Of a DNA stretch of 64,000 bases, positions 1,875-63,619 are shown piece by piece. How positions within the stretch are numbered: position 1 is the stretch's first letter; every line of letters starts with the position of its first letter. Source of the DNA: a virus. Made by a program: the position numbers and the translations under genes. Below the pieces are notes generated by a model. The model had not been told where the DNA came from, made no database searches, and worked only from the letters and a program-made list of their open reading frames with translations. Location of the stretch: IMG/VR virus record IMGVR_UViG_3300044691_000229, positions 3,659-67,658 of that record. One strand, 5' to 3'.

Positions 1875-2014
1875 TGCAACCTAATCCTCCCATCGCCTAC
1901 CTCCAGTATGAGCGCCGCTGGCATGTCAATAATTGGTGGTATCGCACCGCTCCTGATCAACCGTGGCAACTATGTGGTATCGCACTGGCCTGCCAGAATT
2001 TACCGTCACGGTAA
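1874..2014 (+). CDS. Hypothetical protein (46 aa, MQPNPPIAY...NLPSR), not in the ORF track
   Basis: TGATG overlap, RBS GGAGG; stop TAA is the end of the dispersed palindrome. Confidence 0.5.
   Translation: MQPNPPIAYLQYERRWHVNNWWYRTAPDQPWQLCGIALACQNLPSR
2000..2014. repeat. Dispersed palindrome copy TTACCGTCACGGTAA
   Basis: Perfect arms. Confidence 0.95.
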
Positions 2015-2095
2015 CAAAGTCTTAACGATGCGAAGGCTGCGCCTTCCGCGCAGCCCCAGCACCTTCTAACCATCTGACCGGCTGAGGAGCTTGGT

Positions 2096-2341
2096 ATGAG
2101 TGAACGGGATAGATTGATCGACGCGACTGCCGCCGAATTGCAACGGCTGCTGCGGCTAGAACTCACGAACCGTGAGCTCACCCTGGTCCTCTTCGAAGCC
2201 GAAACGGCTCTCGGCGAGAACCTTGTGTGGCTGACTGACAAGCTGGACTTGGACGTTCGCCAGAAGGACCCGGATACCCTGCGCCGTCTAGCCCAGCTAA
2301 ACGCGGCATGGATAAGCTGTGCGAAGGCGCTGAAGGTATGA
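2096..2341 (+). CDS. Hypothetical protein
   Basis: RBS GAGGAG; helical protein. Confidence 0.65.
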   Translation: MSERDRLIDATAAELQRLLRLELTNRELTLVLFEAETALGENLVWLTDKLDLDVRQKDPDTLRRLAQLNAAWISCAKALKV

Positions 2342-2577
2342 GCGATCACCCAAACACCCGTGCGCTGCCCGTCTGCATCGTGTGCCGTAAGCCCAAGTAT
2401 ATAGGCGCGCTCATATGCTGGCCCTGCCACAAGAAGCAGAAACATCTCAACTGGCAGAAGGAGTATGACTACGATCCCGTGATCACCGAGATCATGGACG
2501 CGTTCGAAGGTGGCAAGGTAGCCATCGACAACGCTGGAAATATCACAATTGAACTGATAGAGAAGGGAGAAGCGTAA
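2338..2577 (+). CDS. Hypothetical protein with CxxC...CxxC zinc-finger-like motif
   Basis: CIVC...CWPC; ATGA overlap. Confidence 0.6.
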   Translation: MSDHPNTRALPVCIVCRKPKYIGALICWPCHKKQKHLNWQKEYDYDPVITEIMDAFEGGKVAIDNAGNITIELIEKGEA

Positions 2578-2906
2578 TGTCGCCAAAATTTAAAGCGCGC
2601 TGGATCGCCGATCTGCGCAAGTACCCAAAGACCACGGGCTACCTCAAGACCAAGACGGGCTATTGCTGCCTCGGTGTGGCCTGCCTGACGCTGGGCGCTG
2701 AGTTCGAAGAGCGCTTAGTTTATGGCAACGTTAATAACGAGCGCCCCATCCTGAACGGTCGCAGCCTCGCAGACGGCGAGGGGCTCACTTACAGCGCGCT
2801 GGAGCTCATTGGTCTGACCCTGAGTAACCAGAACAAGCTGATCGACTTGAACGATCGTAGCAGCACGTTCGATCCTGTGATCAAGTATATTGAGGAGAAC
2901 CTGTGA
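2577..2906 (+). CDS. Hypothetical phage protein (YCCLGV motif)
   Basis: W..ALR / YCCLGV / LND...TF pattern common in phage early genes; coupled start. Confidence 0.7.
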   Translation: MSPKFKARWIADLRKYPKTTGYLKTKTGYCCLGVACLTLGAEFEERLVYGNVNNERPILNGRSLADGEGLTYSALELIGLTLSNQNKLIDLNDRSSTFDPVIKYIEENL

Positions 2907-3130
2907 TGAAGTTCCTCACCATGCCGCATGAAGCAGCGCGCATTACACTCAAGTTTTGGATGGGCGCCCTATATAGCTACCAGACCAACGAAGAATGGGC
3001 TGCTAAAATTCCCAATGCCAAGGAGATGGTGGCAGCAGCGCGCGATCGTATGGAGGAGCTGCAACCCGGGAGCTCGCACGACATCACGTTCCTCGGGCGC
3101 TCTGCCGGCGACCTATTGGAGGCAGCATGA
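2903..3130 (+). CDS. Hypothetical protein
   Basis: Coupled ORF with RBS GAGGAG. Confidence 0.6.
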   Translation: MMKFLTMPHEAARITLKFWMGALYSYQTNEEWAAKIPNAKEMVAAARDRMEELQPGSSHDITFLGRSAGDLLEAA

Positions 3131-3312
3131 CCCGCCTTAGCCTCGAAGAAATGCGCGACTATAAGTTCGTCCTCTCCTGCATGAAGGACGAGAGACTGGC
3201 GCAAGTCGTGATGTACAACCGCGATACGTCGCTGGCGCTGCCGTCTCACCCGTGGTCGTTCTACCATCTGGCGCGGGACGAGCAGATCAATCGTAACAAG
3301 GGAGCAGCGTGA
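3127..3312 (+). CDS. Hypothetical protein
   Basis: ATGA overlap, RBS GGAGG. Confidence 0.55.
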   Translation: MTRLSLEEMRDYKFVLSCMKDERLAQVVMYNRDTSLALPSHPWSFYHLARDEQINRNKGAA

Positions 3313-3665
3313 TGGACAAATCCAAATTCACCCGTGACCCGCAGCTGGACAGCGAGGGCTTCGACATACGGACGACTGACCCGCACCGCTACAATATAGA
3401 AGAGGATCGGCGCATCAATGCGGTGTTGCGGGAGCACGACATCAATCCCGAAGGGTGGCAAGAAGAGGAACGCCCCACCGATTTTGACTTCTCCGTGCAG
3501 GCCAAGAAGGCGTTGGCCGAATACTTCCTCAATGGGCCTGTGCAGACGTTCGACGGCGAGCACGGCACGTACAGTGATCCCAAGTGCGCAAAGTGCTCGC
3601 CGTGGTCCCGCATCGAACAGCGCGACCTTGCCACCTGTGGCAAGCTGGGCGGAGCCGTCCGATGA
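3309..3665 (+). CDS. Hypothetical protein
   Basis: Coupled ORF; C-terminal CSPWSRIEQRDL shared with the next gene. Confidence 0.6.
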   Translation: MMDKSKFTRDPQLDSEGFDIRTTDPHRYNIEEDRRINAVLREHDINPEGWQEEERPTDFDFSVQAKKALAEYFLNGPVQTFDGEHGTYSDPKCAKCSPWSRIEQRDLATCGKLGGAVR

Positions 3666-4750: not shown

Positions 4751-5048
4751 CAGCGACATCAACAAGCTCCGCAAGCTGCGGCACGCTCAGGCAATACTCT
4801 TGGGTGTGACGATAACCGATCAAGGTGCCTTCGGTAGTCTGCCATGGCTGTATGAGGCGCCGGACGGTAGCCTGCACGGGCATTGGAAGACCCGGCACGA
4901 GGCAGTAGACAGTGCGCTGAGATGGTTAGGAGTTGAATTAAACAAGTCTAATTACCGCCACGGTAACAAAACGGCAGCGGCGGCGCGCCGCCGCTGCCGT
5001 TTGATTTTTCCGCGCCGTCCGGATGACGGCAAACACTCGAAGAACTGA
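4743..5048 (+). CDS. Hypothetical protein
   Basis: Overlapping start; contains a palindrome copy (NYRHGN). Confidence 0.5.
   Translation: MRSSDINKLRKLRHAQAILLGVTITDQGAFGSLPWLYEAPDGSLHGHWKTRHEAVDSALRWLGVELNKSNYRHGNKTAAAARRRCRLIFPRRPDDGKHSKN
4952..4966. repeat. Dispersed palindrome copy TTACCGCCACGGTAA
   Basis: Perfect arms. Confidence 0.95.
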
Positions 5049-5057
5049 GGAGTTCAC

Positions 5058-5700: not shown

Positions 5701-6480
5701 ATGCCACAAACGAACCCAGCCCCAACGCTCTCGAACAAGATCACTTTCGACAATATTCGCGCCGACATGCGAGAGCTCGGGGCACAAGCAGGGCAAGGCC
5801 AGGACACCCAGATTAAGGCCTTGCTGCGTGCAGTCGAGGGCGGCTACCACAACGCCCTCGACTTGACAAAAGACAAGCACGGTCCGGATATCGACGACGC
5901 CACGCTCTTGGCGGAAGACTATGTGAAGGCCCGCAACGGGTCGGTGGTCTTTGATGCCAAAGACCCAAACCAAAGGAAGCTCGTCAGCACTGTCCGCACC
6001 TCGATCAAGCTCGGCAGCTGGCCCAAAGGCGGCAACGGTGAGCCCATCGCCACGGTGCAGAACCTGATGACGATGCGCAACAACCTCAAGAAAATTCCGG
6101 CTGAAGCGAAGAAATTGAACGACGCTGCGAACACCTTACTTAACTATGCTCGCACGCAGTTGAAGCGCGACACGCTGATCGAGGATGACGAGCTCAAAGG
6201 CTTCTGCTACAAAAAGCCGCAGGAGTTAGCCTCTGCCGAGGACATCATCGAACGATGTGCGAAGCAGCTGGAGAGCCTAGCCAACGGCAAGGCCGCACAC
6301 GGTACCGCACAGAACAATGGCAAGAACGTCACAGACGCAGCCAGAGCACTCCGCAAGGAGCTCGCCTCTATTGCGACTGCCAGGGGGCAGTCGGGCGCTC
6401 CGCAAGTCGGAAGGGCTACGCAGGCCAGAGGACAGGCCGCGCAAGCGTCGCCTCAACCTGCAGACGCAACAACTCCGTAG
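5701..6480 (+). CDS. Hypothetical protein (259 aa)
   Basis: Strong RBS AAGGAG, long ORF, followed by a hairpin. Confidence 0.85.
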   Translation: MPQTNPAPTLSNKITFDNIRADMRELGAQAGQGQDTQIKALLRAVEGGYHNALDLTKDKHGPDIDDATLLAEDYVKARNGSVVFDAKDPNQRKLVSTVRTSIKLGSWPKGGNGEPIATVQNLMTMRNNLKKIPAEAKKLNDAANTLLNYARTQLKRDTLIEDDELKGFCYKKPQELASAEDIIERCAKQLESLANGKAAHGTAQNNGKNVTDAARALRKELASIATARGQSGAPQVGRATQARGQAAQASPQPADATTP

Positions 6481-6890: not shown

Positions 6891-8039
6891 ATGAATATCT
6901 TGGAAGCACGGCGCCAGTCGATGGCGCTTTTTGAAGCGGGCAACGCGGCCCTATGGTCGAGCGGCTCTGGACTAGGTAAGTCGCAGGTGGCTTACAGCAT
7001 GTTCGAAGAGCTGCGCGATCGAGATGCCCCCAAGGGTATCAGCTGGGGCTTCTGTACGATCTTCTTAGCGACCCAGACGCCAACCGACTTGATCGGCGTG
7101 CAGTTCAAGGGTGAGCGCACGTATAAGATCACAAACCCGACCAGCGGTCAGGAGGAAGATCACACCATCACGATTACCGACCCGGCCATCCCGCTCTGGA
7201 TGATGTCCAGCGAGGGCAAACCGGCGTTCATGTACGATCGCATCTTCCTCCTGATTGACGAGTATGGTCAGGGTGAGGGCGACACCAAGCGCGGTGCCGC
7301 TGAAATATTCCTTAACGGTGGCACGCCGCCGTGGTATCTGCCCGCGGGCTCCGTCCGTATGGCCTGTACCAACCAAGGCGCACGCTACGGCGTGAGCAAA
7401 GACTTCGATTTCTGCATTGCCAGACGATTTATTCTTCCAATCGAGGGCGACATCGAGATCACGCTGCGGTATCTCGACAAGCCCTACTGGCACCAGGGTA
7501 AGCAGTGGCAGACCACGCCCGTCGTCAAGGCCTGGGCTGAGCAGAACCCGGCCGTCGTGTTCGAGCCCGAGCACAAGGAGCAAGGACCGTGGTGTAATCC
7601 GCGGCAGCTGTGCGCGGTCGATCGCTACATACAGACCATGTGGCAGCAGGCCGGCAACCAAGACGTTACTCCGGAGATGATGAGCGTGATCGCGGGTGGC
7701 ATTGGTATGCCCGCTGCGACTTCGCTACTCAGCCATCTGGAGTTTCTGACGCAACTGCCGTCGTATGCAGATGTGGTTAGTGATCCAGCCGGGACCGCGG
7801 TACCAACGCGCGCCGATCTGCAGATGCTGATGGCGTACCAGATGGCTGGATACACTCAAGTGGCGGACCTTGCTCCGTGCATCACGTATATCCAGCGACT
7901 GCCCAAAGACATGGGGGTCACCTATATTTCATCTCTCCTACGGAGAGATTATAAAGGCATCATCAACCAGCCGGCGATGCAAGCGTGGATCAACAAGAAC
8001 GCAGCATTGATCTCGATCATTTCTTCGCTTAATAACTAA
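6891..8039 (+). CDS. AAA+ ATPase, MoxR-like
   Basis: Walker A SGSGLGKS, Walker B FLLIDE, ACTN sensor, ARRF, NPRQ motif; VWA partner downstream. Confidence 0.8.
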   Translation: MNILEARRQSMALFEAGNAALWSSGSGLGKSQVAYSMFEELRDRDAPKGISWGFCTIFLATQTPTDLIGVQFKGERTYKITNPTSGQEEDHTITITDPAIPLWMMSSEGKPAFMYDRIFLLIDEYGQGEGDTKRGAAEIFLNGGTPPWYLPAGSVRMACTNQGARYGVSKDFDFCIARRFILPIEGDIEITLRYLDKPYWHQGKQWQTTPVVKAWAEQNPAVVFEPEHKEQGPWCNPRQLCAVDRYIQTMWQQAGNQDVTPEMMSVIAGGIGMPAATSLLSHLEFLTQLPSYADVVSDPAGTAVPTRADLQMLMAYQMAGYTQVADLAPCITYIQRLPKDMGVTYISSLLRRDYKGIINQPAMQAWINKNAALISIISSLNN

Positions 8040-8115
8040 GAACCCCGCGGGGGTAGGGGCGCTGACTAAGTGGCCGGACCTGAAATAGTAGGACCGGCAC
8101 CTCTCAGCGCCCCGA

Positions 8116-8130
8116 TTACCGTCACGGTAA
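8116..8130. repeat. Dispersed palindrome copy TTACCGTCACGGTAA
   Basis: Perfect arms; intergenic just upstream of 8145. Confidence 0.95.
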
Positions 8131-8144
8131 CAAGGTATCAACCA

Positions 8145-8609
8145 ATGTCGAAGTTGACCGAAATAGCCGACGCACTAGGCTGGTCACCACCTTCGATATT
8201 GGCCGATCCCCACGGCCTTGATCAACTCATCGAATGGAAGATGGGTTCGATAGATAGTTTGAGGAAGACCAGACTAAACACCATAGCGAGAGGAGCGCAG
8301 ATGCAACGCCAATTCACTATCGAACTACGCGTCGACTTTGTGGACACCGAGAAGCTTGGACCGCTGAAGCAGGTCCTGCAACAGGCTGCACGGCACGCCT
8401 TTGCCACGGCGATGCTGATCAGCGACAACCCCAAGTCTACCCGGGTCGCGATCTTCAGCGACGACTTCTTCACTGGGCATCAGGAGATCGCTCTTCTCGA
8501 AGATGTGATCCAGCAGGGGCTCGATGCAACTGGTGAAACGACCAGCGGCAGCGAGAGCATCTCCAGCGAGCTCATGGCGGCGGTGCAGAGCCCGAAAGAT
8601 GAAGGGTAG
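8145..8609 (+). CDS. Hypothetical protein (alternative start 8301)
   Basis: ORF; a better RBS (GAGGAG) precedes ATG 8301. Confidence 0.65.
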   Translation: MSKLTEIADALGWSPPSILADPHGLDQLIEWKMGSIDSLRKTRLNTIARGAQMQRQFTIELRVDFVDTEKLGPLKQVLQQAARHAFATAMLISDNPKSTRVAIFSDDFFTGHQEIALLEDVIQQGLDATGETTSGSESISSELMAAVQSPKDEG

Positions 8610-9068: not shown

Positions 9069-9436
9069 AACGCCGCTGGTCACCAATGACAAAAAAGGAA
9101 CGTCATCGTTACTGGCGAGAGTGCATCGCGCAAGCTAAGCAACGATACCTCGCCCGGTGCCGAGCTCACGAGCCAGTGGGTGCATCGCATAAACACTGGT
9201 GCCAATGGTGCGAATGGAGAGACGAGCGGATCAAATACTTCAACGAAGAAAGGCAAAAAGTATATGGCGCAAACCGCAGTGAACACGCAGTCTACCTCAA
9301 CGGCCTTGCCGGAGATCAGCCCAGAGGAGCTCGAACGAGAGAGCCTCAAGCTGACCCCAACGCAGAAGAGCCAGTGGCAGGACACCATGTCGTTGATGGC
9401 GTGGACTTGCCCCGGGTTCCGGCATCTCTTCTATAA
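9065..9436 (+). CDS. Hypothetical basic/Trp-rich protein, overlapping the start of the VWA gene
   Basis: ATGA overlap with the previous ORF. Confidence 0.4.
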   Translation: MKRRWSPMTKKERHRYWRECIAQAKQRYLARCRAHEPVGASHKHWCQWCEWRDERIKYFNEERQKVYGANRSEHAVYLNGLAGDQPRGARTREPQADPNAEEPVAGHHVVDGVDLPRVPASLL

Positions 9437-10571
9437 GCTCCTCGCTAATAACAAGGGTGAGTATGGCGCGGTGCCAACTCACAGGGTCCCCGTAGCGGCC
9501 ACAGACGCGCGCAACATCCTGATCAACCCTCAGGAGTTCTTCAAGTACGACTTGAAAGAGCGCGTGTTCATCATGGGGCACGAGATCGTGCACAACGTCT
9601 ATGGCGACGTGGAGTTTCTCCGGAGATGTGCGCAAAGCGCGACGGTGTCAATGGACGACGGGACGACCATCCCGTTTCGCAACAGCACGATGCAGAAGGC
9701 GATGGACTATCGGATTAATGCTTTGCTGAAAGACAGCAAGATCGGCGCCCCGCCCAAGGACTGCTTGCTGGACGACACAATTGCCACAGCCAACGAGGGG
9801 GTGTGCGACGTCTACAAGAAAGTCTATGACGATGAAGAGAGCGGCGGGGCCAAGACAGGCAAGTATCAGTCGTTCGATCTGATCTTGAAGCCCGGCCAGA
9901 GCAACGGCACGGGAAGCTCGCAGCGCAATCAGCAGCAGTGGGGTGTCGAGATCGCCGCAGCGCAGACGCTGGAGGCGATGAAGTCCCAGGGCCGCGGCAT
10001 GGGCGCATTGAACAAGATGTTCGATCAGATGCTCAACCCCGTGGTGCCGTGGACGGACCACATTCGTGGTATTTTTAACCGCAAGGTGGGATCGGGCAGC
10101 TACAATTGGAAACGCCCTGACAGGCGTTTAATAATCCACGACATCTATGCGCCCTCAAGGTCTGGCAACGGCGCCGGCTGGGTAGTGTGCTGGGGTGACA
10201 CATCTGGCTCGTGCATCGCGGACGTGAACAAGTTCATGCCGGAGATAGCCTCCATCCTCGAAGACTGCCAGCCGCAGCGCCTGACAATCGTGTGGTGCGA
10301 TGACGGTATCCAGCGGATTGACGAGCTCGCCGAGCCTATGGACCTTGAGACCACCAAAGGCGACGGCGCCCCGGGCGGTGGCGGTACCAGCTGCACGCCA
10401 GTGTTCGACTGGATCGCCGAGCACACCGAGCGCCCCGAGGTGTTCATCGGCTTCACTGACCTGTATGTGGACTTCCCGCCTCAAGAGCCGGACATCCCGG
10501 TGATCATCTGGGCCTCGACCACGGACAAGGTGGCACCGTGGGGCGATACGGTTCAGCTCAACCCAAAATGA
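9264..10571 (+). CDS. Putative metallopeptidase + VWA domain protein (DUF2201-like)
   Basis: AATD, HEIVH (HExxH), DYRIN, MIDAS DTSGS, GGGGT and FTD motifs. Confidence 0.85.
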   Translation: MAQTAVNTQSTSTALPEISPEELERESLKLTPTQKSQWQDTMSLMAWTCPGFRHLFYKLLANNKGEYGAVPTHRVPVAATDARNILINPQEFFKYDLKERVFIMGHEIVHNVYGDVEFLRRCAQSATVSMDDGTTIPFRNSTMQKAMDYRINALLKDSKIGAPPKDCLLDDTIATANEGVCDVYKKVYDDEESGGAKTGKYQSFDLILKPGQSNGTGSSQRNQQQWGVEIAAAQTLEAMKSQGRGMGALNKMFDQMLNPVVPWTDHIRGIFNRKVGSGSYNWKRPDRRLIIHDIYAPSRSGNGAGWVVCWGDTSGSCIADVNKFMPEIASILEDCQPQRLTIVWCDDGIQRIDELAEPMDLETTKGDGAPGGGGTSCTPVFDWIAEHTERPEVFIGFTDLYVDFPPQEPDIPVIIWASTTDKVAPWGDTVQLNPK

Positions 10572-10774
10572 CTAAGTTAGAGCGGGCAGGGAGTATCCTG
10601 GCGTGCATAGAGCGCCACGACGCGAGATGGCACCGGCATCTTTGCTGTTTGCCAGAGCGTTGGCCAGAGGAATACGAGAAGTGCAAGGAGTGGTTCGAAG
10701 ACCGCGGAGAGTACCTTCGCAGCGAGTATCGCGCCAGCTTAGGAGGCCGCGAATTTAAATTACCGTCACGGTAA
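10568..10774 (+). CDS. Hypothetical protein (MTKLERAG...KLPSR)
   Basis: ATGA overlap; stop codon supplied by the palindrome. Confidence 0.5.
   Translation: MTKLERAGSILACIERHDARWHRHLCCLPERWPEEYEKCKEWFEDRGEYLRSEYRASLGGREFKLPSR
10760..10774. repeat. Dispersed palindrome copy (extends to AAATTACCGTCACGGTAATTT)
   Basis: Perfect arms. Confidence 0.95.
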
Positions 10775-10780: not shown

Positions 10781-10816
10781 CCCCTACAACTCCCGGAGTT
10801 GTAGGGGTATATTTTT
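10781..10816 (+). terminator. Intrinsic terminator
   Basis: CCCCTACAACTC-CCG-GAGTTGTAGGGG stem followed by TATATTTTT. Confidence 0.75.
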
Positions 10817-10845: not shown

Positions 10846-11565
10846 ATGCGTCGTCACGGGAGATATGTATCGCGTGCTCCAGACGAACGTTCTTCGATTG
10901 GAGATAGCTATGTTGTCGGGGCGGTGAGCAAGCTCAGCCGGACATGCGGAGCGACCGTCGCAACGATGACGCACTACCCGCACAGCCGGGAAGGCACGCT
11001 GCCCATGCTGTTTCGCGACGACGACCTTGCCAAGCTCGAAGCAGTACGCGGGATGGTCGATCCGATGAGCGACACTGAGGTCTATGGGATCGCCCCCGAC
11101 GTCCACCTGACTATCAACTATAAAGAGGCACGCGTGCCTACGATCGACGCTAACCGGCTCTTTATGCAGCAAGATCGCATCACACCGCTCGTGAGCTTCA
11201 TCGCCGAGGTAAAGGCCATCCACGACAAGTTCGAGGAAGTGAAGGCTGTCCTGCGTTGGCTTAATTGCAATGCCACCCCTGGAGCGATCCGGTATTACTG
11301 GCCGACGATACTTGAGCTCTGTCCCAACTCGCCGGCCTTTGCCGATCTTCAGAATGTGCCGACACGGTACCATAATCCCCCGGGTATCCATAACTGGTTG
11401 CAATCTATTAGGGATGCAGCAGCTACAGTAGCCGGCTCGCTGCTCCTCCCAAGTGATGCTGCGCCTCGCCTGAAGAAACAAATGTGGTTGACTTTCGCGA
11501 GTACGACTGTGCATCTGGGAAGCGAAATATTATATATTACGGACCAGATGACCTATTACCTCTAG
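10846..11565 (+). CDS. Hypothetical protein
   Basis: RBS AGGAGG; long ORF before the polymerase; the true start may be internal. Confidence 0.7.
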   Translation: MRRHGRYVSRAPDERSSIGDSYVVGAVSKLSRTCGATVATMTHYPHSREGTLPMLFRDDDLAKLEAVRGMVDPMSDTEVYGIAPDVHLTINYKEARVPTIDANRLFMQQDRITPLVSFIAEVKAIHDKFEEVKAVLRWLNCNATPGAIRYYWPTILELCPNSPAFADLQNVPTRYHNPPGIHNWLQSIRDAAATVAGSLLLPSDAAPRLKKQMWLTFASTTVHLGSEILYITDQMTYYL

Positions 11566-14527: not shown

Positions 14528-14542
14528 TTACCGCCACGGTAA
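14528..14542. repeat. Dispersed palindrome copy TTACCGCCACGGTAA
   Basis: Perfect arms; immediately after a stop codon. Confidence 0.95.
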
Positions 14543-16216: not shown

Positions 16217-16391
16217 GCCTGCCCGACGCGGCAAGGTAAAACCGGTGAAATATACCGGGCCGGCGTGGATCGGACAGTCACACACAGCGAGGTTAGTCAA
16301 TGGAACATAAACGTGTTTTTGAGTTCACGATCAACTTCTGGTACGTCGCCTATTGGCTAGGCGTGCTGGTCGTCTATCTGGCGGTGTTCCG

Positions 16392-53729: not shown

Positions 53730-53744
53730 TTACCGTGGCGGTAA
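53730..53744. repeat. Dispersed palindrome copy TTACCGTGGCGGTAA (inverted core)
   Basis: Perfect arms; intergenic, just upstream of the GT2 gene. Confidence 0.95.
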
Positions 53745-55097: not shown

Positions 55098-57086
55098 TCA
55101 AAAAGGTCCCGGAAGTGCCGCATACATTGAGTTGAACAGGGCGGCGAAGGTCGCGTCCGTCGCGCTCTTTTTCAGGTATGAGATATTGCCCGGCGTGCCG
55201 GGAACGTAGGTATTCAAGCCGGTGCTTGAATTGACCGTCATCGCGCTCTTCAGGCCGGCCAATTGCAGACCAGAAGACGGCCCGCGCGCCGCATAAAGTA
55301 CACCGAGTTGACCCCAGCATGGACGCGGCGATGTGCCGCCGTTCGTAACCCAATCGTGGAAAGCCTGTTGCACGGGATTAGTGGCAGACGCCGTCGTGCT
55401 CGCGGGTGCTGCGGTGATAGTGGTCCCCAACTCGTCACCACATATGATGACTTGCGTCGGCCAGTTTGCGATAACGTCGGCGCTGTTCGCAGCCGGGCCG
55501 TTCGCAAAATTAAAATCTGCCGATCCAGCGTTCGGCATGAACCCGGCAACCCAAACAAGCAGCGCATTTTTTGCGATAATAAGCGCGGCCCCGCTGGGAA
55601 GACCATCGCCACCCGCGTTTGCCGCCGATGTCAATAGCCCGTCGAACGTCGTGGCAAAGCCTGTGCCGACCAAGATTGGGATGCTTCCATCCGGTACAGA
55701 AGCAAGGAGCGCCCTTAGTTTTTGCACGCCGTCCGTGAAGCTGGCGCGTCCGAGATTGGCACCGAACGTAGCCGAAATGTCGGCTGTATAGAAACTGTTA
55801 GATGGACCGCCTGCAGGGACGGCACCCTGCCATGCTCCAACAAACGCCGTGGTTTTCGTCGGCTGCATATACCGGGTGATCGCGTAGCAGGTATCGGCGC
55901 CCCGGTCGTTGATCGAGTCGGAGACGATGCCGAGCAGGTTAAATTCGCCGCGCAGGTCCAGGGCGTTTGCGAGGGCCACGTCCCCGGCATCGTCGATATC
56001 GCTTGCGATGTCGGTCGAAAGAATGACGTTTCGAACACCACTCGGAAGCGACGGCTTCGTGCGGCCCAGCGAGAGACTGGCATGTAGACCCGGACGTTCG
56101 GCGCTGAATATAGTTGCAGGTAGCAGCGACGCGACGGTCGCAATCCCCGTATTGTAGATCGCCAGTTCCTCGATGTTGCCATTGAAGAAGTTTGAAACGC
56201 CGCCGATGCTCCCGATTTGCGGGACGATCGAGTTAATGATCGTGTTGGCGCCAAGCGTGTTCGTGGTGATCGTTACGGTCTCGGGGATGCCGTTGACCCA
56301 CATCTGAACGCCGGCACCTACGCCACTGCCGTCGTAGGAGATGACGACATGCCAGTTGCTACCATTTGTAAGGTCCGTGGAGCCGTGACAGTCGAGAAAC
56401 TTAGCGCCACTTACACTGTTCATCAATGTGAAGCTTAGAAACTCTTTGGCCCCACCAGCAGTGAGGCACTGCACGCCAATGCGGATACCTGGAGTCGTGA
56501 AAACGTTGTTGAACTTGGAGAAGATCGTATCGACGTTGTTATTTGTCGTGCGCGCGAAATTTGGCCGAATGATTGCCTCAACGGTGAACGGCTGTGTGCG
56601 ATCATAGTTGTGAAAGAACGTTTCGCCCGCTGCACCCAGCGATGCCGTGCCCGAGGTTCCGTTGAATAGCGCCGAAGATTGTCCTGCGAGCAGAGCAGTC
56701 GAACCCAGCGTGACGCCGGCCACGATCGTCGCTGGTACGCCAGACGGAGATGCATCGGCCAATGTCGGCGACGCAACCGCATCGGTGCCGCGCCAGTACC
56801 CAACCAGGGAGGTGATCGACAAAACGTCCGCCACATAGAGCGGGTTGCCACCTGCAAAGCCAGAAATAAACACATTCTTGTGGCCGCCGGTCAGGCCGGT
56901 CGGGCCAATGTTGTAGACCTTCTCCAGCACACCAGATGGACCGGTCGCACCTGTAGCCTGCAGCCACTGCGCAATATTTCCAGTCGGCCCAGTGTAGCCG
57001 CTCAAAATGTTCACACCCTTGATCGTTCCGGTCGGGCCGGTCGGACCCCCGAGCACAACAACTGTTTTGCGCGGATCAGCGGTCAT
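55098..57086 (-). CDS. Virion-associated protein: short GPT segment + LamG/ConA-like domain + nucleoside-hydrolase-like domain
   Basis: LVGYW, FNGTS, FTVEA, WHVV.SYDG, WVNG, F.GNIEELAIYN; then VILSTDIASDIDDAG. Confidence 0.65.
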   Translation of the reverse strand: MTADPRKTVVVLGGPTGPTGTIKGVNILSGYTGPTGNIAQWLQATGATGPSGVLEKVYNIGPTGLTGGHKNVFISGFAGGNPLYVADVLSITSLVGYWRGTDAVASPTLADASPSGVPATIVAGVTLGSTALLAGQSSALFNGTSGTASLGAAGETFFHNYDRTQPFTVEAIIRPNFARTTNNNVDTIFSKFNNVFTTPGIRIGVQCLTAGGAKEFLSFTLMNSVSGAKFLDCHGSTDLTNGSNWHVVISYDGSGVGAGVQMWVNGIPETVTITTNTLGANTIINSIVPQIGSIGGVSNFFNGNIEELAIYNTGIATVASLLPATIFSAERPGLHASLSLGRTKPSLPSGVRNVILSTDIASDIDDAGDVALANALDLRGEFNLLGIVSDSINDRGADTCYAITRYMQPTKTTAFVGAWQGAVPAGGPSNSFYTADISATFGANLGRASFTDGVQKLRALLASVPDGSIPILVGTGFATTFDGLLTSAANAGGDGLPSGAALIIAKNALLVWVAGFMPNAGSADFNFANGPAANSADVIANWPTQVIICGDELGTTITAAPASTTASATNPVQQAFHDWVTNGGTSPRPCWGQLGVLYAARGPSSGLQLAGLKSAMTVNSSTGLNTYVPGTPGNISYLKKSATDATFAALFNSMYAALPGPF

Positions 57087-59410
57087 CCGACGCCCCCGCT
57101 AACCGGCTTGGCGCCGGGCCCGGGCTGGTTGCCCATGAGATGTGTCTGTGGTCCCATGCTGTTCGAAAGCTGGCTGGGCTTCGCTCCCTGTGCCTGCGCG
57201 GCGCCGTGCGCCACCGATCCGGGAGCCTGCGGCGATGACTGCTGCTGTTCACCGCCAAGGTCCATCCCAGGATTGCTGGTGGTGCTCACCCCGCCTGGCG
57301 TGCCAATGTGGGCTGCAGGGCCCTCTGGCATCTGCTCCTGCATGGCGAGCTTGCCCGCCGTCAATTCAGTGACGATACGCTTAACGCCAGCAGCCACGCC
57401 CATGTCGACCGCTTTGTTCACAGCGGCGTCGATAGCTCCCTGACCGTTCTGCTGTTGCTTCTGCTCGGCTTGCGCCATCTTCTCGATCTGGTCTTCCGGC
57501 GGCACGATCTCCTCGCCAGGCATGCCGATCGTTGTCGACACAGAGCGCAGGACGACTGCCCGCCCCTTGATGCCCATGATCTTCATGTCGGTCGGGTTGT
57601 TCGTCGCCGTCAGGAACTCGATCTGGCGCTGGCGCAAGGTCTCGCGTTGAATCGCAACATTCACGCCCTGCACCGTCAGCCGTTCTTCGCCAGTCAAAAG
57701 TCCGCTCTTGTCCGTGAGCAACAGCAGGTCCTGGAGCTGCATCATCGATCCCTCGATCACGTCCCGGTCGATATTCGCCGACACCGTCTGAAGGATTTTG
57801 CTGGCGTTGCCCATCAGCATCGCGAGACCCGACGCCGTCCGACCAGCACCACCACCAGCCTGTCCACCAACATACTTCGGGATCGCCGAAACGTCGTCCG
57901 CAATGCTGACAAACTCCTGGAAGCAGCTGATCATTGTCTGCGCGTTCGACGCCGGCATGAAGAAGCTGATCGGCTGCTTCCCGCTCGACGTCATCGGATC
58001 GTTGCGCGTGTGCCATCGTTTCCATGGATACATGTCCTCGCCGTTCTCTTCTGGCGCCAGCATGTCGTCGTTGATGACAACTTGGGGACCAGACGAGATC
58101 GAGATGTTGTTGATCAGCGACCGCAAGGTCGCGTTCGCGGCTTCTTGTAGATCGGCCAGCAGATCAGTCAAGCCGTTCCCTACAGGAGTGCCGGGGACCT
58201 TCTCGAACGACGTGATGAAATAAGGATGGCGCTGCCGCGGGCTCGGTGATAGATGGCACTTGATGACATGTGATCCGATCACCCAAATTTGAACGTGGTA
58301 GTCGCGCAGCTCGTCCTGTACGGGCATCCCGTAATCCTGCAGGAGGCGCCCTTGAACGTTCCCGTTGAACTCCATCATCGATATCATACCCGACCGGTTC
58401 CAGGCTGGGTTCTCGCGCTGCTCCAGGACACTCCGTTCCGCGTCGGTGGTGTCCCAGTTGTCGTAGAGACCGCCACGGCCATACTCATCGAGAACCGCTC
58501 GTATCTCAGGTTGGTTATACCCGGGCAGATCGAGCAGGTCATTGAGCTCGGCACGTGTGACACGCAGCTTTTCGATCACATTGGCATTCTCAATATCCGA
58601 GACGCCGGGAGTGAACCAGATATCGAACGGCGAGACCCGGTTCCATGTTAGCTTTGGGACTTGTTTGACTTGCGGTTGGCCGCCACCGGGGGGCCAAATC
58701 ACAGTCGGGATCACCTTGACCACTGGTCCCTTGATGCAGGCGAACGGGAAGATCGGCAGGTCGACAAGGAACTCCGCGAGCGCGTGGTAGTAGCCGCCCT
58801 GTGTCAGCATATCCTGGATTTTGTCTTCGCTCACACGCGCCTGCTGCGCGGCCTTGCGCTTGGCGGCCTCTTCGGCCTGCTCGACCAGGTGGCGCTTGCG
58901 CTCGGCCAGATCACTCGGGTTCGGCGGCTGGCCCAGCTGCTGCGTGACCTGCTGCGCCTCCTGCTGGATCAGCTGGTCGATCTTCTGGAGGATGTCTGGC
59001 GGGATTTGCGGCTCTTTGGGGGGCTGCAAAGACCACGGGACATCCTGGCCCAAATAAATGTCTCGAAGAAGCGATGAAGCAGCACGGCACTTCTGTGCAA
59101 TAAGACGTGCGTAAACCGTAGACCCGCCCCATTTTGTGATCTCGATCAGTTTGGTGGGATCATATTGCCCGTTGAAGGAACGCAGCGCGGCGAGCATGCG
59201 ATTGCTCCAGCCGGCGACGGTGTTGCGGTGGTTCCGGAATATCTCGAACTGCCCTTTCACGTAGCCGGCGAGCTCCGGATACTGGGGTTGTGACGATTGC
59301 TGAGCCGCTTGCGCCGCCTGGGCTTTCTGTGCCGCGGCGGCAGAAAGCTGCTGTTCCAGCTGCTCGGGCGGAGTAAACTGGATCACGCCGTTCTGGCCAA
59401 GGTCCGACAT
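57083..59410 (-). CDS. Portal protein
   Basis: 775 aa after the terminase; KCR.A, RVSPFD, G.GL.DL..D.Q, SGPQV, RTASGL.MLM. Confidence 0.85.
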   Translation of the reverse strand: MSDLGQNGVIQFTPPEQLEQQLSAAAAQKAQAAQAAQQSSQPQYPELAGYVKGQFEIFRNHRNTVAGWSNRMLAALRSFNGQYDPTKLIEITKWGGSTVYARLIAQKCRAASSLLRDIYLGQDVPWSLQPPKEPQIPPDILQKIDQLIQQEAQQVTQQLGQPPNPSDLAERKRHLVEQAEEAAKRKAAQQARVSEDKIQDMLTQGGYYHALAEFLVDLPIFPFACIKGPVVKVIPTVIWPPGGGQPQVKQVPKLTWNRVSPFDIWFTPGVSDIENANVIEKLRVTRAELNDLLDLPGYNQPEIRAVLDEYGRGGLYDNWDTTDAERSVLEQRENPAWNRSGMISMMEFNGNVQGRLLQDYGMPVQDELRDYHVQIWVIGSHVIKCHLSPSPRQRHPYFITSFEKVPGTPVGNGLTDLLADLQEAANATLRSLINNISISSGPQVVINDDMLAPEENGEDMYPWKRWHTRNDPMTSSGKQPISFFMPASNAQTMISCFQEFVSIADDVSAIPKYVGGQAGGGAGRTASGLAMLMGNASKILQTVSANIDRDVIEGSMMQLQDLLLLTDKSGLLTGEERLTVQGVNVAIQRETLRQRQIEFLTATNNPTDMKIMGIKGRAVVLRSVSTTIGMPGEEIVPPEDQIEKMAQAEQKQQQNGQGAIDAAVNKAVDMGVAAGVKRIVTELTAGKLAMQEQMPEGPAAHIGTPGGVSTTSNPGMDLGGEQQQSSPQAPGSVAHGAAQAQGAKPSQLSNSMGPQTHLMGNQPGPGAKPVSGGVG

Positions 59411-59899: not shown

Positions 59900-61360
59900 T
59901 TAAGTCCATCCCGCTGACGAGACTGCCACGCGCTTCTTAGTGCGCGGGCGTAGCCGGCGGCTAATTTCAGGGACAATGCCACCGTGCACGACAAGAGCAA
60001 GATATTGAAGATCGTCAGCCACATGCGAGAAACCCTCCTTGTCTTGCTTGTCGGGAACAACCCGCAGCGCGCCGGTCTTCATCTTCGTAAATCGGTAGCC
60101 GCCGCTCATGGCGCGGCAGAGAAACGGACATCCAGCGCGCGAGATCATTAGGGTCGGGCCGCTGTTGGTCTGGCGTCCCAGGAGGGCCTCCACTGCGCGG
60201 ATGCGTGGCTCGATGTCGTTGGTCGGGGCCGGGAAGTGCGGCAGGCCCAGGCGCCCCAGCGCGTCAAAGCAGCTCTCCTCGCTGACAGAACCTTTCGCGA
60301 TGCCACTGGGATCGCCGACGACGCACACTCTGAAGCCCATGTATTTGTCCGAGAACAGGATCGGCTTCAGGCTCTGGTTGACGTGCTTCTCCAGGCCTAC
60401 GTTGGTCGCCGGCACTTCCTGATGCACAACAAGTCGTCCGAGGTGGTCCATCTGCGCGATGAGGCTCCACGGGTTTCGTCCGAAGTCTTGGCCAATGAGA
60501 ACGGGGTATCCGGGAATGAGTAGGGTATCGGCGACAATGTGAAAGTCGGATCGAAACGTATTTTTAAATACAGCTGCGCCAGAAGGATCGTCACCGTACT
60601 GGGCTTTGACGTATCGATTAACGAACTCACTGTCTTCTCCATGCTGCTCGACCATGCGTTCATAGTAGCGCCGCCCCTGAGCTAGGCGCACCGGATGATC
60701 AACTGGTAATTTGATCGTGTCCTCTGTTTGAGGACCCAGGAAGTTTAGATTTTCCGCGAGGGGCGACAAGCCCGACGGCTGCTTGAAGATGGACACCCCG
60801 AGCGGCGGGTTCTCCATGTACTGCTGCCACGGTGACATCTCCGTCGGGAAGTTGGTGTCGGCGATCCAACCGCACCACGTCGGCACGCCGCGGTCTGCGG
60901 AGGGGTACCGGCCTAGGCGCCCTGAGATAGGGCCAAGCACGTCCAGGTCCATCTCAATGCACTCAGACAGCCACGCGGCGGTCAGCTGTGACGAAAGCAG
61001 GCGGGCCTGGTCCTCGGCGTTTTCCAGGGGAATGAAAATCCACTCTGACTTGACGTCGCCAAACTCCACGTGGAAGACACCTTCCGACACCCGCCACTGG
61101 CAACCCAGCGCGCCCAGCCACTGCTGGCAGTCCTTAAGGACCGTGTCCTTGAGTTGTTTAAGCGTCTGCCGCACGATCGCAAAGCGGGTGTAGCGGAAGC
61201 CGTCCTTGCCCTTGTTCTGGGCGATCGCGCGCCGCAGCAGCTCAATAATGCAGGCGACGGTTTTCCCCGATCCGACGGGGCCCGCAATGAGCCGGCCGTA
61301 GGTCTCGCTCTTCATGAAGGAAGCGCAGGTCGGGGGTGCTTTGAAATCAAGCGACGCCAT
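59900..61360 (-). CDS. terL: Terminase large subunit
   Basis: GPVGSGKT Walker A, VRQT, WLSE Walker B, DTN, GQDFG, DPSG, SHVADDLQY nuclease motif. Confidence 0.92.
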   Translation of the reverse strand: MASLDFKAPPTCASFMKSETYGRLIAGPVGSGKTVACIIELLRRAIAQNKGKDGFRYTRFAIVRQTLKQLKDTVLKDCQQWLGALGCQWRVSEGVFHVEFGDVKSEWIFIPLENAEDQARLLSSQLTAAWLSECIEMDLDVLGPISGRLGRYPSADRGVPTWCGWIADTNFPTEMSPWQQYMENPPLGVSIFKQPSGLSPLAENLNFLGPQTEDTIKLPVDHPVRLAQGRRYYERMVEQHGEDSEFVNRYVKAQYGDDPSGAAVFKNTFRSDFHIVADTLLIPGYPVLIGQDFGRNPWSLIAQMDHLGRLVVHQEVPATNVGLEKHVNQSLKPILFSDKYMGFRVCVVGDPSGIAKGSVSEESCFDALGRLGLPHFPAPTNDIEPRIRAVEALLGRQTNSGPTLMISRAGCPFLCRAMSGGYRFTKMKTGALRVVPDKQDKEGFSHVADDLQYLALVVHGGIVPEISRRLRPRTKKRVAVSSAGWT

Positions 61361-61656
61361 CAGGCGAGGTCCATATGTCTATAATTGCGGGCCGTCTCTC
61401 TACCCTTCGGTGAATTTTGGTATCGCCATTTTGCTTCTACACCGACCGGACTAGACCGATAGCGGCGTTCGCATTCGCGGCCTTTTGGGGTTGTCTTTCT
61501 TCGGCGGATGGCCTCTCTGCCCTCTGGCGTCGTTTTATAGTGTGCCCAGTACCCGGGCCGGTAGGCCGCCATATAATCTCTATGTGTGGTGGTCTTCCGG
61601 TACTCCTTCATATATTCCCGCATGTAGGCGGCTCTCTTCTCTTTCGTCCACGGCAT
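61360..61656 (-). CDS. Small basic protein with 13-aa (x-x-S/T-P-x-G-x-E-x-x-x-R-Y) repeats
   Basis: Four repeats; TGATG coupling at both ends. Confidence 0.6.
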   Translation of the reverse strand: MPWTKEKRAAYMREYMKEYRKTTTHRDYMAAYRPGYWAHYKTTPEGREAIRRRKTTPKGRECERRYRSSPVGVEAKWRYQNSPKGRETARNYRHMDLA

Positions 61657-62777
61657 CAGGCGCTCATCCTCGTGTCGGCGAAGTTCTGCCACGACACCCA
61701 CGGCTTCGCGGTGGTCAGAGGATTGAGCTGTCCTTCGAGATAGACTTGCCAGTGAGCAGTGATGCCGTGCTCGGGGTGGGTAAACCAAAGAGCTTGCGAC
61801 GGGCGAGAGTACGGCGCACGAAGTACGAGATGGGCGAACTCGTCATATCCCTTGAGGGAATTGTTAACAATGAGGCCGGGAAGCGTGATGTATTGGTGCC
61901 AGTGGCCGACGAGCAAAGTATCGAAATCACGGCCAATCTGCGCCTCCGATCGGTGCGTCTTAAGAGTGCCTCGCATGATCGGTCCAAGAGCACCGATGAT
62001 GCCATCTCCGCCCTTAGTGCCAAGACTATCGCCGTGGGTAAGCATGTATCGATGGCCAAAGAGATTGAACGCGCAATCCGCCGTTTCCGGGATCGAGAAC
62101 TGGACATGCTTGCTCCTCCGGAAGTGTCGGGCAACGCCGCAGTAAACGTTCCACTCGTGTGACGTGAACACGCGCTGCTTCATCTGCATCTTCTTGGTGG
62201 AGCGCCCGTGGTTGCCGACGACACACGGCACGTAAATCTTGCCGAAGCTGGAGGCCATCATTTCGAGGCCGCCACTGATCAGGTCTATCAAGTCCTCGAT
62301 CGCTTGCTGCGTCGTGCGATCGTTGGTCTTCATCAGCTCCTCATGAATGTCACCACCCAGCATATCGCCTCCCAGAGCGACGACGCAGCCCGGGTAGCTG
62401 ATCTTTGCACGGCCCATATGGTTGAAAGCCAGATCAACGGTGGTCTCTGCCAGTCGTTTAATCCGGCGCTTGGCGACGGCCTTGTCGTAGGTGTTGATCC
62501 CTGGCATGCGGACGACTTCACCATAGTGCCAGTCGCTCCAGATCGTAGCCGGCACGCCGCGAGCGCCCGCTCGGCCCTCTCGGACAAGCCACTCAGGGGG
62601 GTCGGGGTCATACGCTGCGATCTTGTATATATTTTCTCGAATTGTCCGCGCATCGTCCCCCTCCTCTGTCAGCCGCGTGATCGTCTTCTTCGCGTCGAGG
62701 AGCTCGGCATTCTTCTGGCGGATGATCGCTACCGCGTCGGCCAGCCTCTCAGCGTCTGTTTTTTGCGTGCCAGCCAT
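61656..62777 (-). CDS. Calcineurin-like metallophosphoesterase with N-terminal coiled coil
   Basis: SDWH, GGD...GDIH, GNHGR, THGD, GHWH. Confidence 0.85.
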   Translation of the reverse strand: MAGTQKTDAERLADAVAIIRQKNAELLDAKKTITRLTEEGDDARTIRENIYKIAAYDPDPPEWLVREGRAGARGVPATIWSDWHYGEVVRMPGINTYDKAVAKRRIKRLAETTVDLAFNHMGRAKISYPGCVVALGGDMLGGDIHEELMKTNDRTTQQAIEDLIDLISGGLEMMASSFGKIYVPCVVGNHGRSTKKMQMKQRVFTSHEWNVYCGVARHFRRSKHVQFSIPETADCAFNLFGHRYMLTHGDSLGTKGGDGIIGALGPIMRGTLKTHRSEAQIGRDFDTLLVGHWHQYITLPGLIVNNSLKGYDEFAHLVLRAPYSRPSQALWFTHPEHGITAHWQVYLEGQLNPLTTAKPWVSWQNFADTRMSA

Positions 62778-62990
62778 TAGTCTTTCTCCATACTCTTTCA
62801 ATGCCTGCCGGCGATGTCGCGTGGCGACGGTATCGTTCTTGTCCTAACGGGGAATTATCATACCGCGCGTTCGCGGCACGCCCCTTCGCGGTCATCTGAT
62901 AGCGGCGTCTGGCTTCGTAGCCCTTAGCCGAGTGCCCATATCGCCAGACCCTAGCTGTTCCCTTGCTCGATTGTGCGTAGACCTTCGACG
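62749..62990 (-). other. Second 13-aa-repeat reading frame overlapping the terS 3' end, with no clear start
   Basis: AQSSKGTARVWRY/GHSAKGYEARRRY/QMTAKGRAANARY/DNSPLGQERYRRH/ATSPAGIERVWRK. Confidence 0.45.
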
Positions 62991-63619
62991 AGATGCGGTT
63001 GAGCAGCTGCCGGCGGAGGCGTCGTCGCGCTGACGACGAGCTTCTGGTCTCCGCCAAGGTCAATGTTAATGATGAAGCGTTCGCCAGGAGTGCCTGTCCC
63101 AAGTTCGCGCTCACCAACACCGGCGACTTTCGCAAAGAGCTTAGCAGCCTCCACGACGCCGGTGAGCGGCTCGGATTTGGTCCGCATGCGAGAACCGATA
63201 TCCAGCAGGCTGTCTTCGAGGATGGCTGCAGCCTCAACCTTAATCCGTTCCTGCGTGGTGAGAGGCGCGTGCCACTCGATGCAGGCGGCTTGGAGGGCGG
63301 CTTTGTAGAAGTCGTTGTTCGCTTCGAGGAACTCATACTGGGTCTCGGTGAGTTTGTATTCCTTCAGAACGCCGGGGCGCTCCTTGATGTCCATCGCGAT
63401 CTCGCGCGCGAGACGCGCCAGCTCTGACGGGCTCATGGGGGGTAGCTGGACCAGCGCCTTGGCGGCCTGGACACCCTCTGGGGATAGCTTTGTTACCGTG
63501 GCGGTAACAGGCACAGCTTCGAGCGCCTCGACTAGGTCAGCCTCGCGCATCGGCTCTGGCGCTTCCCACTTCTCGCCGGCCAAGACCGCGTCAAACCCTG
63601 TGTCGACACTCTCGCTCAT
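62951..63619 (-). CDS. terS: Probable terminase small subunit
   Basis: Helical protein upstream of terL with C-terminal F.INIDLG. Confidence 0.65.
   Translation of the reverse strand: MSESVDTGFDAVLAGEKWEAPEPMREADLVEALEAVPVTATVTKLSPEGVQAAKALVQLPPMSPSELARLAREIAMDIKERPGVLKEYKLTETQYEFLEANNDFYKAALQAACIEWHAPLTTQERIKVEAAAILEDSLLDIGSRMRTKSEPLTGVVEAAKLFAKVAGVGERELGTGTPGERFIINIDLGGDQKLVVSATTPPPAAAQPHLVEGLRTIEQGNS
63493..63507. repeat. Dispersed palindrome copy TTACCGTGGCGGTAA (inverted core)
   Basis: Perfect arms; coding (VTATVT). Confidence 0.95.

Follow-up and report, generated by a model that had tools for sequence, protein, structure and literature searches.

What reads a 15-bp palindrome that recurs throughout a viral chromosome, within genes and between them? 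The chromosome in question is that of a phage, here called g0, represented by IMG/VR record IMGVR_UViG_3300044691_000229 (G000; 67,658 bp), of which a 64,000-nucleotide stretch with a G+C content of 59% (the window; G000 3659-67658) was analyzed; positions are those of the window unless marked G000. The palindrome is TTACCG-N3-CGGTAA. The answer that we favor, and to which we give about an even prospect of being right, is that its copies serve as recognition sites in the double-stranded DNA of the phage and that their reader is encoded by the phage itself, as part of, or in dependence on, a three-gene early operon for the protein gpX, an ATPase and a VWA protein. No description of the motif, or of gpW, a second candidate reader encoded by the phage, was found in the literature, subscription journals and supplements lying outside the scope of the search.

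The window holds 17 perfect copies of the palindrome and the whole genome 18, the eighteenth lying upstream of the window at G000 2178 (window -1480); three further sites carry one mismatch (11790, 17253, and 20266), and only two carry two. A preliminary description of this DNA had listed the same 17 perfect and three one-mismatch sites, all of which are present, and had held the array to be far beyond chance. It is: no copy appeared in any of 100 dinucleotide-preserving shuffles, and 500 codon-preserving shuffles of our ORF calls, in which proteins and codon usage were kept, gave a mean of 0.198 copies and a maximum of 2, against 18 observed. Enrichment is confined to the paired form. TTACCG occurs 30 times and CGGTAA 27 times in the genome, 18 of each within palindromes, and isolated half-sites are at chance level. 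The three central bases read CCA in nine of the window sites, TCA in four, CTA in one and TGG in three, the counts first reported, and this "spacer" is really a component of the site: all 36 half-sites have a pyrimidine at position 7, and 34 of 36 have C/G at the center. The extended dyad is W-W-R-TTACCG-Y-S-R-CGGTAA-Y-W-W, with the inner CG/CG invariant, Y and R at positions 7 and 9, and S at the center. AT-rich flanks, another feature of the preliminary description, are found at positions -2/-3 only; elsewhere the dyad itself extends beyond the 6-bp arms. The center base shows a strand bias in g0 (15:3) and in the relative G001 (14 of 16 on one strand) that is not reproduced in two other relatives (9:12 in G002 and 11:8 in G006), and therefore we do not take it as a property of the system. 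A dyad-symmetric protein-recognition site, as originally proposed, is the best reading of the palindrome. The same proposal had the protein coating the genome throughout, for silencing, condensation, protection or the pacing of packaging, all of which are conjectural.

A pattern scan of IMG/VR, followed by site counts over whole records, reveals that the array is shared by an entire family of podophage-like genomes, soil and rhizobial, each complete member of which has 16-22 sites. Sites number 16 in G001, 21 in G002, 18 in G003, 19 in G006, 6 in G005, 10 in the 43 kb of G004 and 11 in the 32 kb of G009, all of these being relatives of g0 by polymerase, portal, terminase or capsid; three unrelated contigs (G007, G008, and G012) carry one site each and phage Rollin none. 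Positions are conserved as well. G001 is close to g0 (primase-helicase 87% identical, DNA ~80-85%), and 11 of the 18 g0 sites are perfect there at the same position, with three carrying one mismatch, one lost and three in unalignable DNA. In G002 (primase-helicase 59% identical), 13 sites are alignable, with flank identities of 0.73-0.83, and nine are perfect, one has one mismatch and three are absent. Between relatives the arms are fixed while the three central bases vary, coding sites keep synonymous positions, and the variants at 11790 and 17253 are retained as variants in g0, G001 and G002. By these alignments the sites are under purifying selection. Beyond what was first noticed, the array is a family trait with conserved positions, is over-dispersed along the chromosome and is tied to one early operon.

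The motif also comes in lineage-specific forms. Rhizobium phage RHph_TM3_14A carries a sister motif at 34 sites, 26 of the form gTTACC-N6-GGTAAc (mostly TTACCT-N4-AGGTAA) and eight of the form TTACC-N5-GGTAA. TTACGG-N3-CCGTAA is found in G027, TTACTG-N3-CAGTAA in G028 and TTACC[G/T] in G025 and G026, and G003 has an R-N-Y spacer. Apparent ACCGG-N5-CCGGT palindromes in G004 and G005 were rejected as a further array; they derive from collagen-like Gly-Pro-Thr coding repeats. Such repeats, present in G004, G005 and G019 (L137-L142, L319-L322) and at 42.4-45.7 kb of the window, mimic a second array.

What ties the array to the operon is its phyletic distribution. When all g0 proteins were profiled, gpX, the ATPase and the VWA protein were found in all array genomes, RHph_TM3_14A included, and were absent from G019 and G021-G023. 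The three proteins and the array thus coincide in g0, G001, G002, G003, G005, G006 and RHph_TM3_14A. The complete genomes G021, G022 and G023, which lack the operon proteins, have 0, 1 and 4 matches to the relaxed pattern TTAC-N7-GTAA, none palindromic, and no other palindrome array; G019, likewise without them, has four matches, including three residual TTACC-type sites. Among 12 further records that encode gpW, the five with gpX, ATPase and VWA have 19, 19, 22, 21 and 9 such matches and the seven that lack all three proteins have none. In total, 12 of 23 genomes have both operon and array and 11 lack the operon and have no array or a residual one, with no exception among those examined. Moreover, all 22 IMG/VR loci that match the gpX profile carry TTAC-N7-GTAA sites, 100 of them palindromic in 333 kb (0.30 per kb). 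Open reading frames (ORFs) 8070-8609, 10846-11565 and 61656-62801 follow the same pattern less consistently. A midpoint-rooted tree of five concatenated core proteins places G019 beside the array-bearing G005 (support 1.0) and G021-G023 beside the array-bearing G003 (0.79), with RHph_TM3_14A outermost, and therefore argues for at least two independent joint losses of operon and array.

Within the operon, comparison of evolutionary rates favors gpX as the specificity determinant. The ratio of gpX identity to g0 over the mean ATPase-VWA identity to g0 is 0.83-0.90 in all six TTACCG genomes and 0.69-0.73 in all five genomes with a variant motif, RHph_TM3_14A among them; in ATPase and VWA, G027 is the new genome nearest to g0 (70%), but identity in gpX is only 48%. 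Because gpX diverges faster where the motif changes, and because the recognition helix of gpW does not follow the variant, we favor gpX for this role. The protein is basic and has a predicted model of good quality (pLDDT 85). A search returned 213 homologs at E ≤0.001, and the 120 listed are metagenomic and named only "hypothetical protein"; a search of 50,697 deposited phage genomes gave no match to gpX at E up to 0.01. A relationship to the repressor c of phiC31 was considered and rejected, an Atlas feature score of 0.81 being within the range of chance and the family PF25746 giving no support.

Several observations weigh against assigning the sites to gpX and its operon. gpX matches no Pfam or PHROGs family; the best Foldseek rows for its fold are σ-factors at E 0.33 and TM 0.14; VIA matches reach Z ≤6.8, cover a helical hairpin only and name no family; and a profile search of the PDB gave only chance-level matches. 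Because no family, fold or structural neighbor was found, DNA binding by gpX is inferred only from genomics. In addition, the phyletic pattern is phylogenetically structured, with two losses placed on the tree, one of them weakly (0.79), and seven array-less records unplaced, and the co-variation sample is small and phylogenetically uncorrected, with G025 and G026 being sisters. Because the operon is lost as a whole, any of its products or another co-lost factor could be the reader. The mixture of N5 (8 sites) and N6 (26) spacings in RHph_TM3_14A is awkward for a rigid dimer. Finally, the genome also encodes a recognized DNA-binding protein of suggestive specificity, gpW; no other helix-turn-helix protein was found by Pfam or PHROGs among 40 window ORFs examined.

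gpW consists of a small N-terminal helix-turn-helix and a C-terminal CtrA-like winged helix, with no receiver domain. Its CtrA-like domain, helix and fold, together with the CtrA-box frame of the sites, make it attractive as the reader: it would bind TTAC-N7-GTAA much as CtrA binds TTAA-N7-TTAA and, having no receiver, would act as a constantly active mimic of CtrA or as a repressor whose operators are dispersed. gpW exceeds the Pfam cut-off of 26.2 bits for Trans_reg_C with a score of 34.7, as do its orthologs in G002, G003, G005 and G006, with scores of 37.4, 26.7, 31.0 and 29.3 bits. Among NCBIfam families, CtrA (NF045991) ranks first for four of five gpW orthologs, in the DNA-binding part only, with matches to profile positions ~151-222 of 22-34 bits against an equivalog cut-off of at least 350. 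In an alignment, recognition helix and wing are nearly identical to those of Bradyrhizobium CtrA, and the AlphaFold model (pLDDT 88) matches OmpR/PhoB DNA-binding domains with probability 1.0, TM by target of 0.5-0.6 and E of 0.03-0.2. gpW is encoded in all seven TTACCG-array genomes that cover its region, and RHph_TM3_14A, which lacks it, has a minimal ORF that matches the gpW winged-helix profile weakly (E 1e-4) and whose recognition helix differs. (This ORF, EVB41_062 at L001 34654-34968, encodes 104 aa and is located 133 nt downstream of one of that phage's N5 sites.) The distribution of gpW, however, does not track the sites. Homologs are kept in all 11 array-less relatives (G019, G021-G023, G029-G035), gpW itself is undetected by tblastn in the array-bearing RHph_TM3_14A, and the helices encoded at L234, where the motif is TTACGG, and at L238, where it is TTACCG, are nearly the same. 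A search recovered 107 homologs, two of them labeled CtrA by JGI, and gpW homologs occur in 79 IMG/VR loci, many without any site. We therefore consider gpW unlikely to be the reader. Since it is kept even in relatives without the array, it may instead mimic or compete with host CtrA.

Could the reader be a host protein? The preliminary description had left open whether a phage or a host protein binds the sites, and had raised the matter of the motif in host chromosomes. Relatives of the capsid are found in bacterial assemblies, namely two Bradyrhizobium isolates (~61-kb contigs) and metagenome-assembled genomes (MAGs) of Pseudolabrys, Xanthobacteraceae and Rhodospirillales, and exact TTACCG-N3-CGGTAA has no copy in any of the five bacterial genomes with related elements. 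The relaxed form GTTAC-N7/8-GTAAC falls within phage-like contigs or regions in 10 of 11 matches in G014, 6 of 7 in G015 and 10 of 10 in G013, and a reversed control pattern is equally common or commoner genome-wide in these three; homologs of gpX and of the ATPase are located in the same phage-like regions. Because relaxed sites and gpX/ATPase genes both fall there, the motif family marks phage DNA and is not a host regulon. A phage-encoded reader is thus the half of the earlier suggestion that is favored. The host of g0 likely belongs to the Hyphomicrobiales, and parts of the phage family are temperate, since related elements are integrated in the Pseudolabrys and Xanthobacteraceae MAGs. The Pseudolabrys contig (L159/L160) contains two identical tandem prophage copies, at 22-43 kb and 84-105 kb, ~62 kb apart; both copies have five relaxed GTTAC-type sites along with gpX and ATPase homologs of their own.

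CtrA, or another host regulator, binding the sites and thereby coupling the phage to host physiology would fit the frame of the palindrome. The CtrA box is given as TTAA-N7-TTAA and phages of Alphaproteobacteria are described as carrying CtrA sites (PMC9437464), and box and palindrome have in common the 15-bp dyad frame TTAN-N7-NTAA. The palindrome differs in that all 18 sites have C as the fourth base and G as the twelfth (TTAC/GTAA and not the defining TTAA), in that the 7-bp spacer is not free, its inner CCG/CGG being conserved, and in that the sites are dispersed and not clustered in a control region (PMC9437464). The motif also differs between closely related phages, it is missing from the five genomes of candidate-host type, and the array vanishes together with phage genes. 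A host reader is therefore very improbable indeed. Canonical TTAA-N7-TTAA occurs only three times in the genome (97, 35766, and 50436). G002 has six such boxes, four of them within 2 kb.

The placement of the sites bears on whether they act in RNA. By our own map (longest ORFs with high G+C at third codon positions, strand assigned by region; the gene calls do not come from annotation), the genome is ~90% coding, and ~7-8 of the 18 g0 sites are intergenic, the rest lying within genes that include those for the polymerase, the primase-helicase and large virion proteins. Intragenic sites read V/I-T-A/V-T-V-T/N or Y-R-x-G-K/N in the two stop-free frames, in unrelated proteins, and in the third frame the TAA is usable as a stop. 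Several g0 sites are located 3-32 nt upstream of a start codon or immediately ahead of a terminator, neither of which suits a promoter element, and a promoter reading was rejected on this ground. On the plus strand of g0, each of the two strongest terminators is directly preceded by a site, and the core operon lies between these two pairs. Small hairpins that stabilize, process or antiterminate transcripts would accord with the boundary enrichment in RHph_TM3_14A, where 13 of the 34 sites fall between genes or on a gene boundary, compared with 11% for random placement (17 of the 34 are within 30 nt of a start or stop), and with the presence of a site 0-40 nt upstream of 5 of 33 strong terminators in nine genomes, where 0.39 would be expected. 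Because the other 28 terminators have none, however, we read this coupling as a by-product of intergenic placement. About half of the sites are inside genes, long essential ones among them; the sense-strand loop is inconsistent (12 YYA vs. 6 TGR, with genes taken as plus to ~24.9 kb and minus elsewhere); and the stem is conserved in sequence, beyond mere pairing. Action in RNA is thus quite improbable. As intrinsic terminators in their own right, for which a G+C-rich stem followed by a T run is required, only three sites (16606, 22692, and 25414) passed a lax scan of the window up to 40000, two of which (16606 and 22692) are on the strand antisense to their host genes. N4-like hairpin promoters served by a phage RNA polymerase were rejected, as no such polymerase was found: none of the ten largest proteins belongs to a corresponding family, and no called ORF has a D-x-D-G-D motif.

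The spacing of the sites raises a second role for hairpins, in single-stranded DNA. Overall density is about one site per 3-4 kb, higher in the early region, where gaps are ~3 kb, and sites are never clustered. In g0 perfect sites are at least 1,246 bp apart (P ~0.0009) and the coefficient of variation of the gaps is 0.59 (P ~0.013); the corresponding minima in G001-G006 are 578-2,046 bp, the P values across relatives being nonindependent through common ancestry, and the G009 fragment has gaps of 1.8-3.8 kb with a coefficient of variation of 0.21. Regular spacing is not seen in RHph_TM3_14A. Lagging-strand start signals for the primase-polymerase/helicase, or nicking sites, would explain a spacing of ~3 kb and would suit the quasi-regular gaps, the perfect 6-9 bp arms around a 3-nt center, the tolerance of RHph_TM3_14A for five or six central bases and the presence of genes for a PrimPol/DUF927 helicase, endonuclease VII, a VRR-NUC nuclease and a PD-(D/E)XK nuclease. 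Family members, however, have the stem sequence itself in common, beyond mere pairing; Y at position 7 and R at position 9 occur independently and not as complements; and the replication genes are retained in array-less relatives. We rate single-stranded hairpins as improbable. A rough count, made by eye on the g0-G001 blast comparison only, gave no significant association of sites with homology breakpoints.

How does the array compare with dispersed phage sites already described? In Cluster A mycobacteriophages, the immunity repressor (gp71 in L5) binds stoperators, asymmetric sites of 13 bp whose orientation follows that of transcription; many are dispersed within and between genes, where they act on elongation and not at single promoters. 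The array described here likewise consists of one site in many copies within and between genes, but the site is a palindrome and the orientation of its center base is independent of gene strand. In phiC31, the CIRs are a 17-bp inverted repeat found at many intergenic places and bound by one phage protein, repressor c; no match to Phage_Repressor_c (PF25746) was found in G000 at E up to 10. Tested as CtrA boxes, stoperators, CIRs or intrinsic terminators, the array fails in each case, and its sequence, which the preliminary description did not recognize as any of these, is not that of a known parS, matS, SlmA or stoperator site.

The closest parallel is the repeat of Cluster O mycobacteriophages, a 17-bp dyad, TGTTCGG-N3-CCGAACA, with 34 copies in Corndog, for which a dimeric binding protein is suggested, promoter control is thought unlikely and the function is left unknown (PMC4351075). 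The array resembles it in every structural respect compared. Both have invariant inverted arms around a 3-bp center (here six invariant and one to three preferred bases per arm), both are spread over a genome of ~70 kb at intergenic and intragenic places and near gene starts, in both positions are mostly conserved among relatives and central asymmetry does not follow transcription, and the Cluster O motif, too, is absent from the host genome (PMC4351075). The two differ in sequence (TTACCG vs. TGTTCGG), host phylum and, apparently, phage family, with fewer copies here (16-22), and the present array is, in addition, evenly spread, variable by lineage and co-occurrent with gpX, ATPase and VWA, no such link being reported in the section consulted (PMC4351075). 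Mycobacterium phages are not among the ten named organism groups returned by the ATPase search, six smaller groups being unnamed. The array is thus a further case of a known but unexplained kind of dispersed dyad repeat.

Returning to recognition of phage DNA through the operon, a mechanism can be outlined in which gpX would bind each dyad as a dimer and serve as the specificity subunit, and the ATPase and VWA protein would assemble, remodel or remove gpX-DNA complexes, the role proposed for them being based on the general behavior of AAA+/VWA pairs. The array would work chromosome-wide, its copies providing evenly spaced anchor or roadblock points and not single-promoter operators, and selection would hold the sites at about one per 3-4 kb. 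A more ambitious form of this proposal, which we advance only tentatively, is that the palindromes are evenly spaced docking points for a new ATP-driven phage machine, in which gpX is the reader and the ATPase and its VWA/metallopeptidase-like partner act along the whole chromosome, for example through timed assembly and removal of roadblocks or DNA loops of ~3 kb. If true, viruses would encode a genome-wide DNA system of a new class, one widespread among soil phages that infect Hyphomicrobiales-type hosts and perhaps sharing its logic with the Cluster O repeats.

Dyad repeats dispersed over a phage genome are on record for Cluster O mycobacteriophages but, to our knowledge, have never been explained. 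The same kind of array is now found in an abundant family of uncultured soil phages, and its presence exactly when the three-gene early operon is present, over 23 genomes, offers a first concrete genetic handle. The natural specificity variants TTACCG, TTACGG, TTACTG and TTACCT can be swapped, making the protein-DNA system directly testable. Confirmation would assign a function to many related phage proteins now called "hypothetical" and would add to the ways in which viruses are known to mark and manage their chromosomes. The ATPase of N4-like phages might find an explanation as well: homologs of ~21-22% identity, annotated "ATPase," occur in N4-like phages of Escherichia, Achromobacter, Acinetobacter and Shigella, presumably with a VWA gene as neighbor, and we know of no dispersed palindrome array reported for such phages. 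Neither the ATPase nor the VWA protein has a PDB sequence match at E up to 1.

Table 1. Palindromic sites, terminator-like hairpins and genes of g0 (window positions unless marked G000)
Feature	Position	Strand	Remarks
Site TTACCG-TCA-CGGTAA	2000-2014		between small early ORFs
Site	4952-4966		directly after TAA stop, 2 nt ahead of terminator 4969-5002
Site	8116-8130		14 nt before ATG, within gpX-ATPase-VWA operon; kept in G002
Site	10760-10774		6 nt ahead of terminator 10781-10807; kept in G001
One-mismatch site, TTACCA..CGGTAA	11790-11804		in DNA polymerase gene; same variant in G001, G002
Site	13282-13296		in DNA polymerase gene; perfect at same place in G001, G002
Site	14528-14542		directly 3′ of stop codon of ORF 14027-14527
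Site	16606-16620		in ORF 16353-16706, encoding VTATVT
One-mismatch site, TTACTG..CGGTAA	17253-17267		3 nt before ORF 17271-17489; variant kept in G001, G002
One-mismatch site, CGATAA arm	20266-20280		perfect in G001
Site	22692-22706		in primase-helicase gene; perfect arms, different spacers in G001, G002
Site	25414-25428		codons 5-9 of minus-strand ORF 25040-25504
Site	26708-26722		between 1712-aa gene and ORF 26401-26691, 16 nt before ATG of the latter; kept in G001, G002
Site	29643-29657		in 1712-aa virion protein gene
Site	32732-32746		in 470-aa gene
Site	39109-39123		in 917-aa internal virion protein gene; kept in G001, G002
Site	41884-41898		in ORF 41834-42130
Site	49558-49572		in small minus-strand ORF 49445-49687; kept in G001, G002
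Site	53730-53744		intergenic, 32 nt before ATG of 682-aa glycosyltransferase/TPR gene
Site	63493-63507		in ORF 62951-63661; kept in G001, G002
Strong intrinsic-terminator-like hairpin	4969-5002	+	upstream of gpX operon; preceded by site 4952
Strong intrinsic-terminator-like hairpin	10781-10807	+	downstream of VWA gene; preceded by site 10760
gpX	5701-6480	+	259 aa, all-helical, early; presence matches array in every genome examined
ATPase (AAA+-type; phrog_1297)	6891-8039	+	only in array-bearing genomes
VWA protein	9180-10571	+	DUF2201_N putative metallopeptidase + DUF2201 VWA-like; only in array-bearing genomes
gpW	G000 465-1031	-	188 aa; outside window; locus L226
Tyrosine integrase	G000 2417-3460	-	outside window; Pfam Phage_integrase, 62.8 bits
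Family A DNA polymerase	11573-13597	+	early block
SNF2 helicase	17706-19271	+	early block
Endonuclease VII	19881-20324	+	early block
PrimPol/DUF927 helicase (primase-helicase)	21482-24646	+	early block
Portal	57083-59410	-	
Large terminase	59900-61360	-	

The remaining features of the genome provide the setting of the array (Table 1). Early and replication genes occupy the plus strand from ~1.2 to 24.9 kb, with further products that include a PD-(D/E)XK exonuclease, a VRR-NUC nuclease, a DUF4406 protein and a dGTP_diPhyd_N protein, and virion genes on the minus strand take up the remainder, among them those for an internal virion protein and for the 1712-aa protein, which has an InPase domain. 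No tRNA genes were found in the genome, and the close relatives G001 and G002 have no homolog of the integrase. Near-identical DNA was not found among deposited phages, the nearest of which are Rhizobium phages RHph_TM3_14A, TM27A, TM27B and TM29 (52-57% identity in helicase and portal); HMO-2011-type marine phages are much more remote relatives. The sequence was recovered only in soil-metagenome contigs from three studies, one run containing most of the stretch and two containing small shares.

A few smaller observations concern regions outside the operon. An AT-rich divergent region at 760-1220 separates the leftward and rightward gene blocks and contains no copy of the palindrome, the closest being at -1480 and 2000. 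Two small basic Cys-rich ORFs, at 17271-17489 on the plus strand and 26032-26217 on the minus strand, have in common the pattern CC-x-C...H...GK..FR and look like paralogs; no family was found for either. At 13594-14527, genes for a DUF4406 protein (nucleoside 2-deoxyribosyltransferase-like) and for a protein with a dATP/dGTP diphosphohydrolase N-terminal domain adjoin the 3′ end of the DNA polymerase gene, a pair that may point to modified DNA or to altered nucleotide pools; among the mid-size early ORFs submitted to PHROGs and Pfam, none matched an adenylosuccinate-synthetase (PurZ-type) family. Finally, the ends of the record repeat each other over 334 bp (G000 1-334 and 67317-67650), with a patch of ~100 bp in the middle of the repeat that differs at many positions. 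This has the look of population variants in an assembly that is circular or terminally redundant, or else of local hypervariability within a minus-strand gene.

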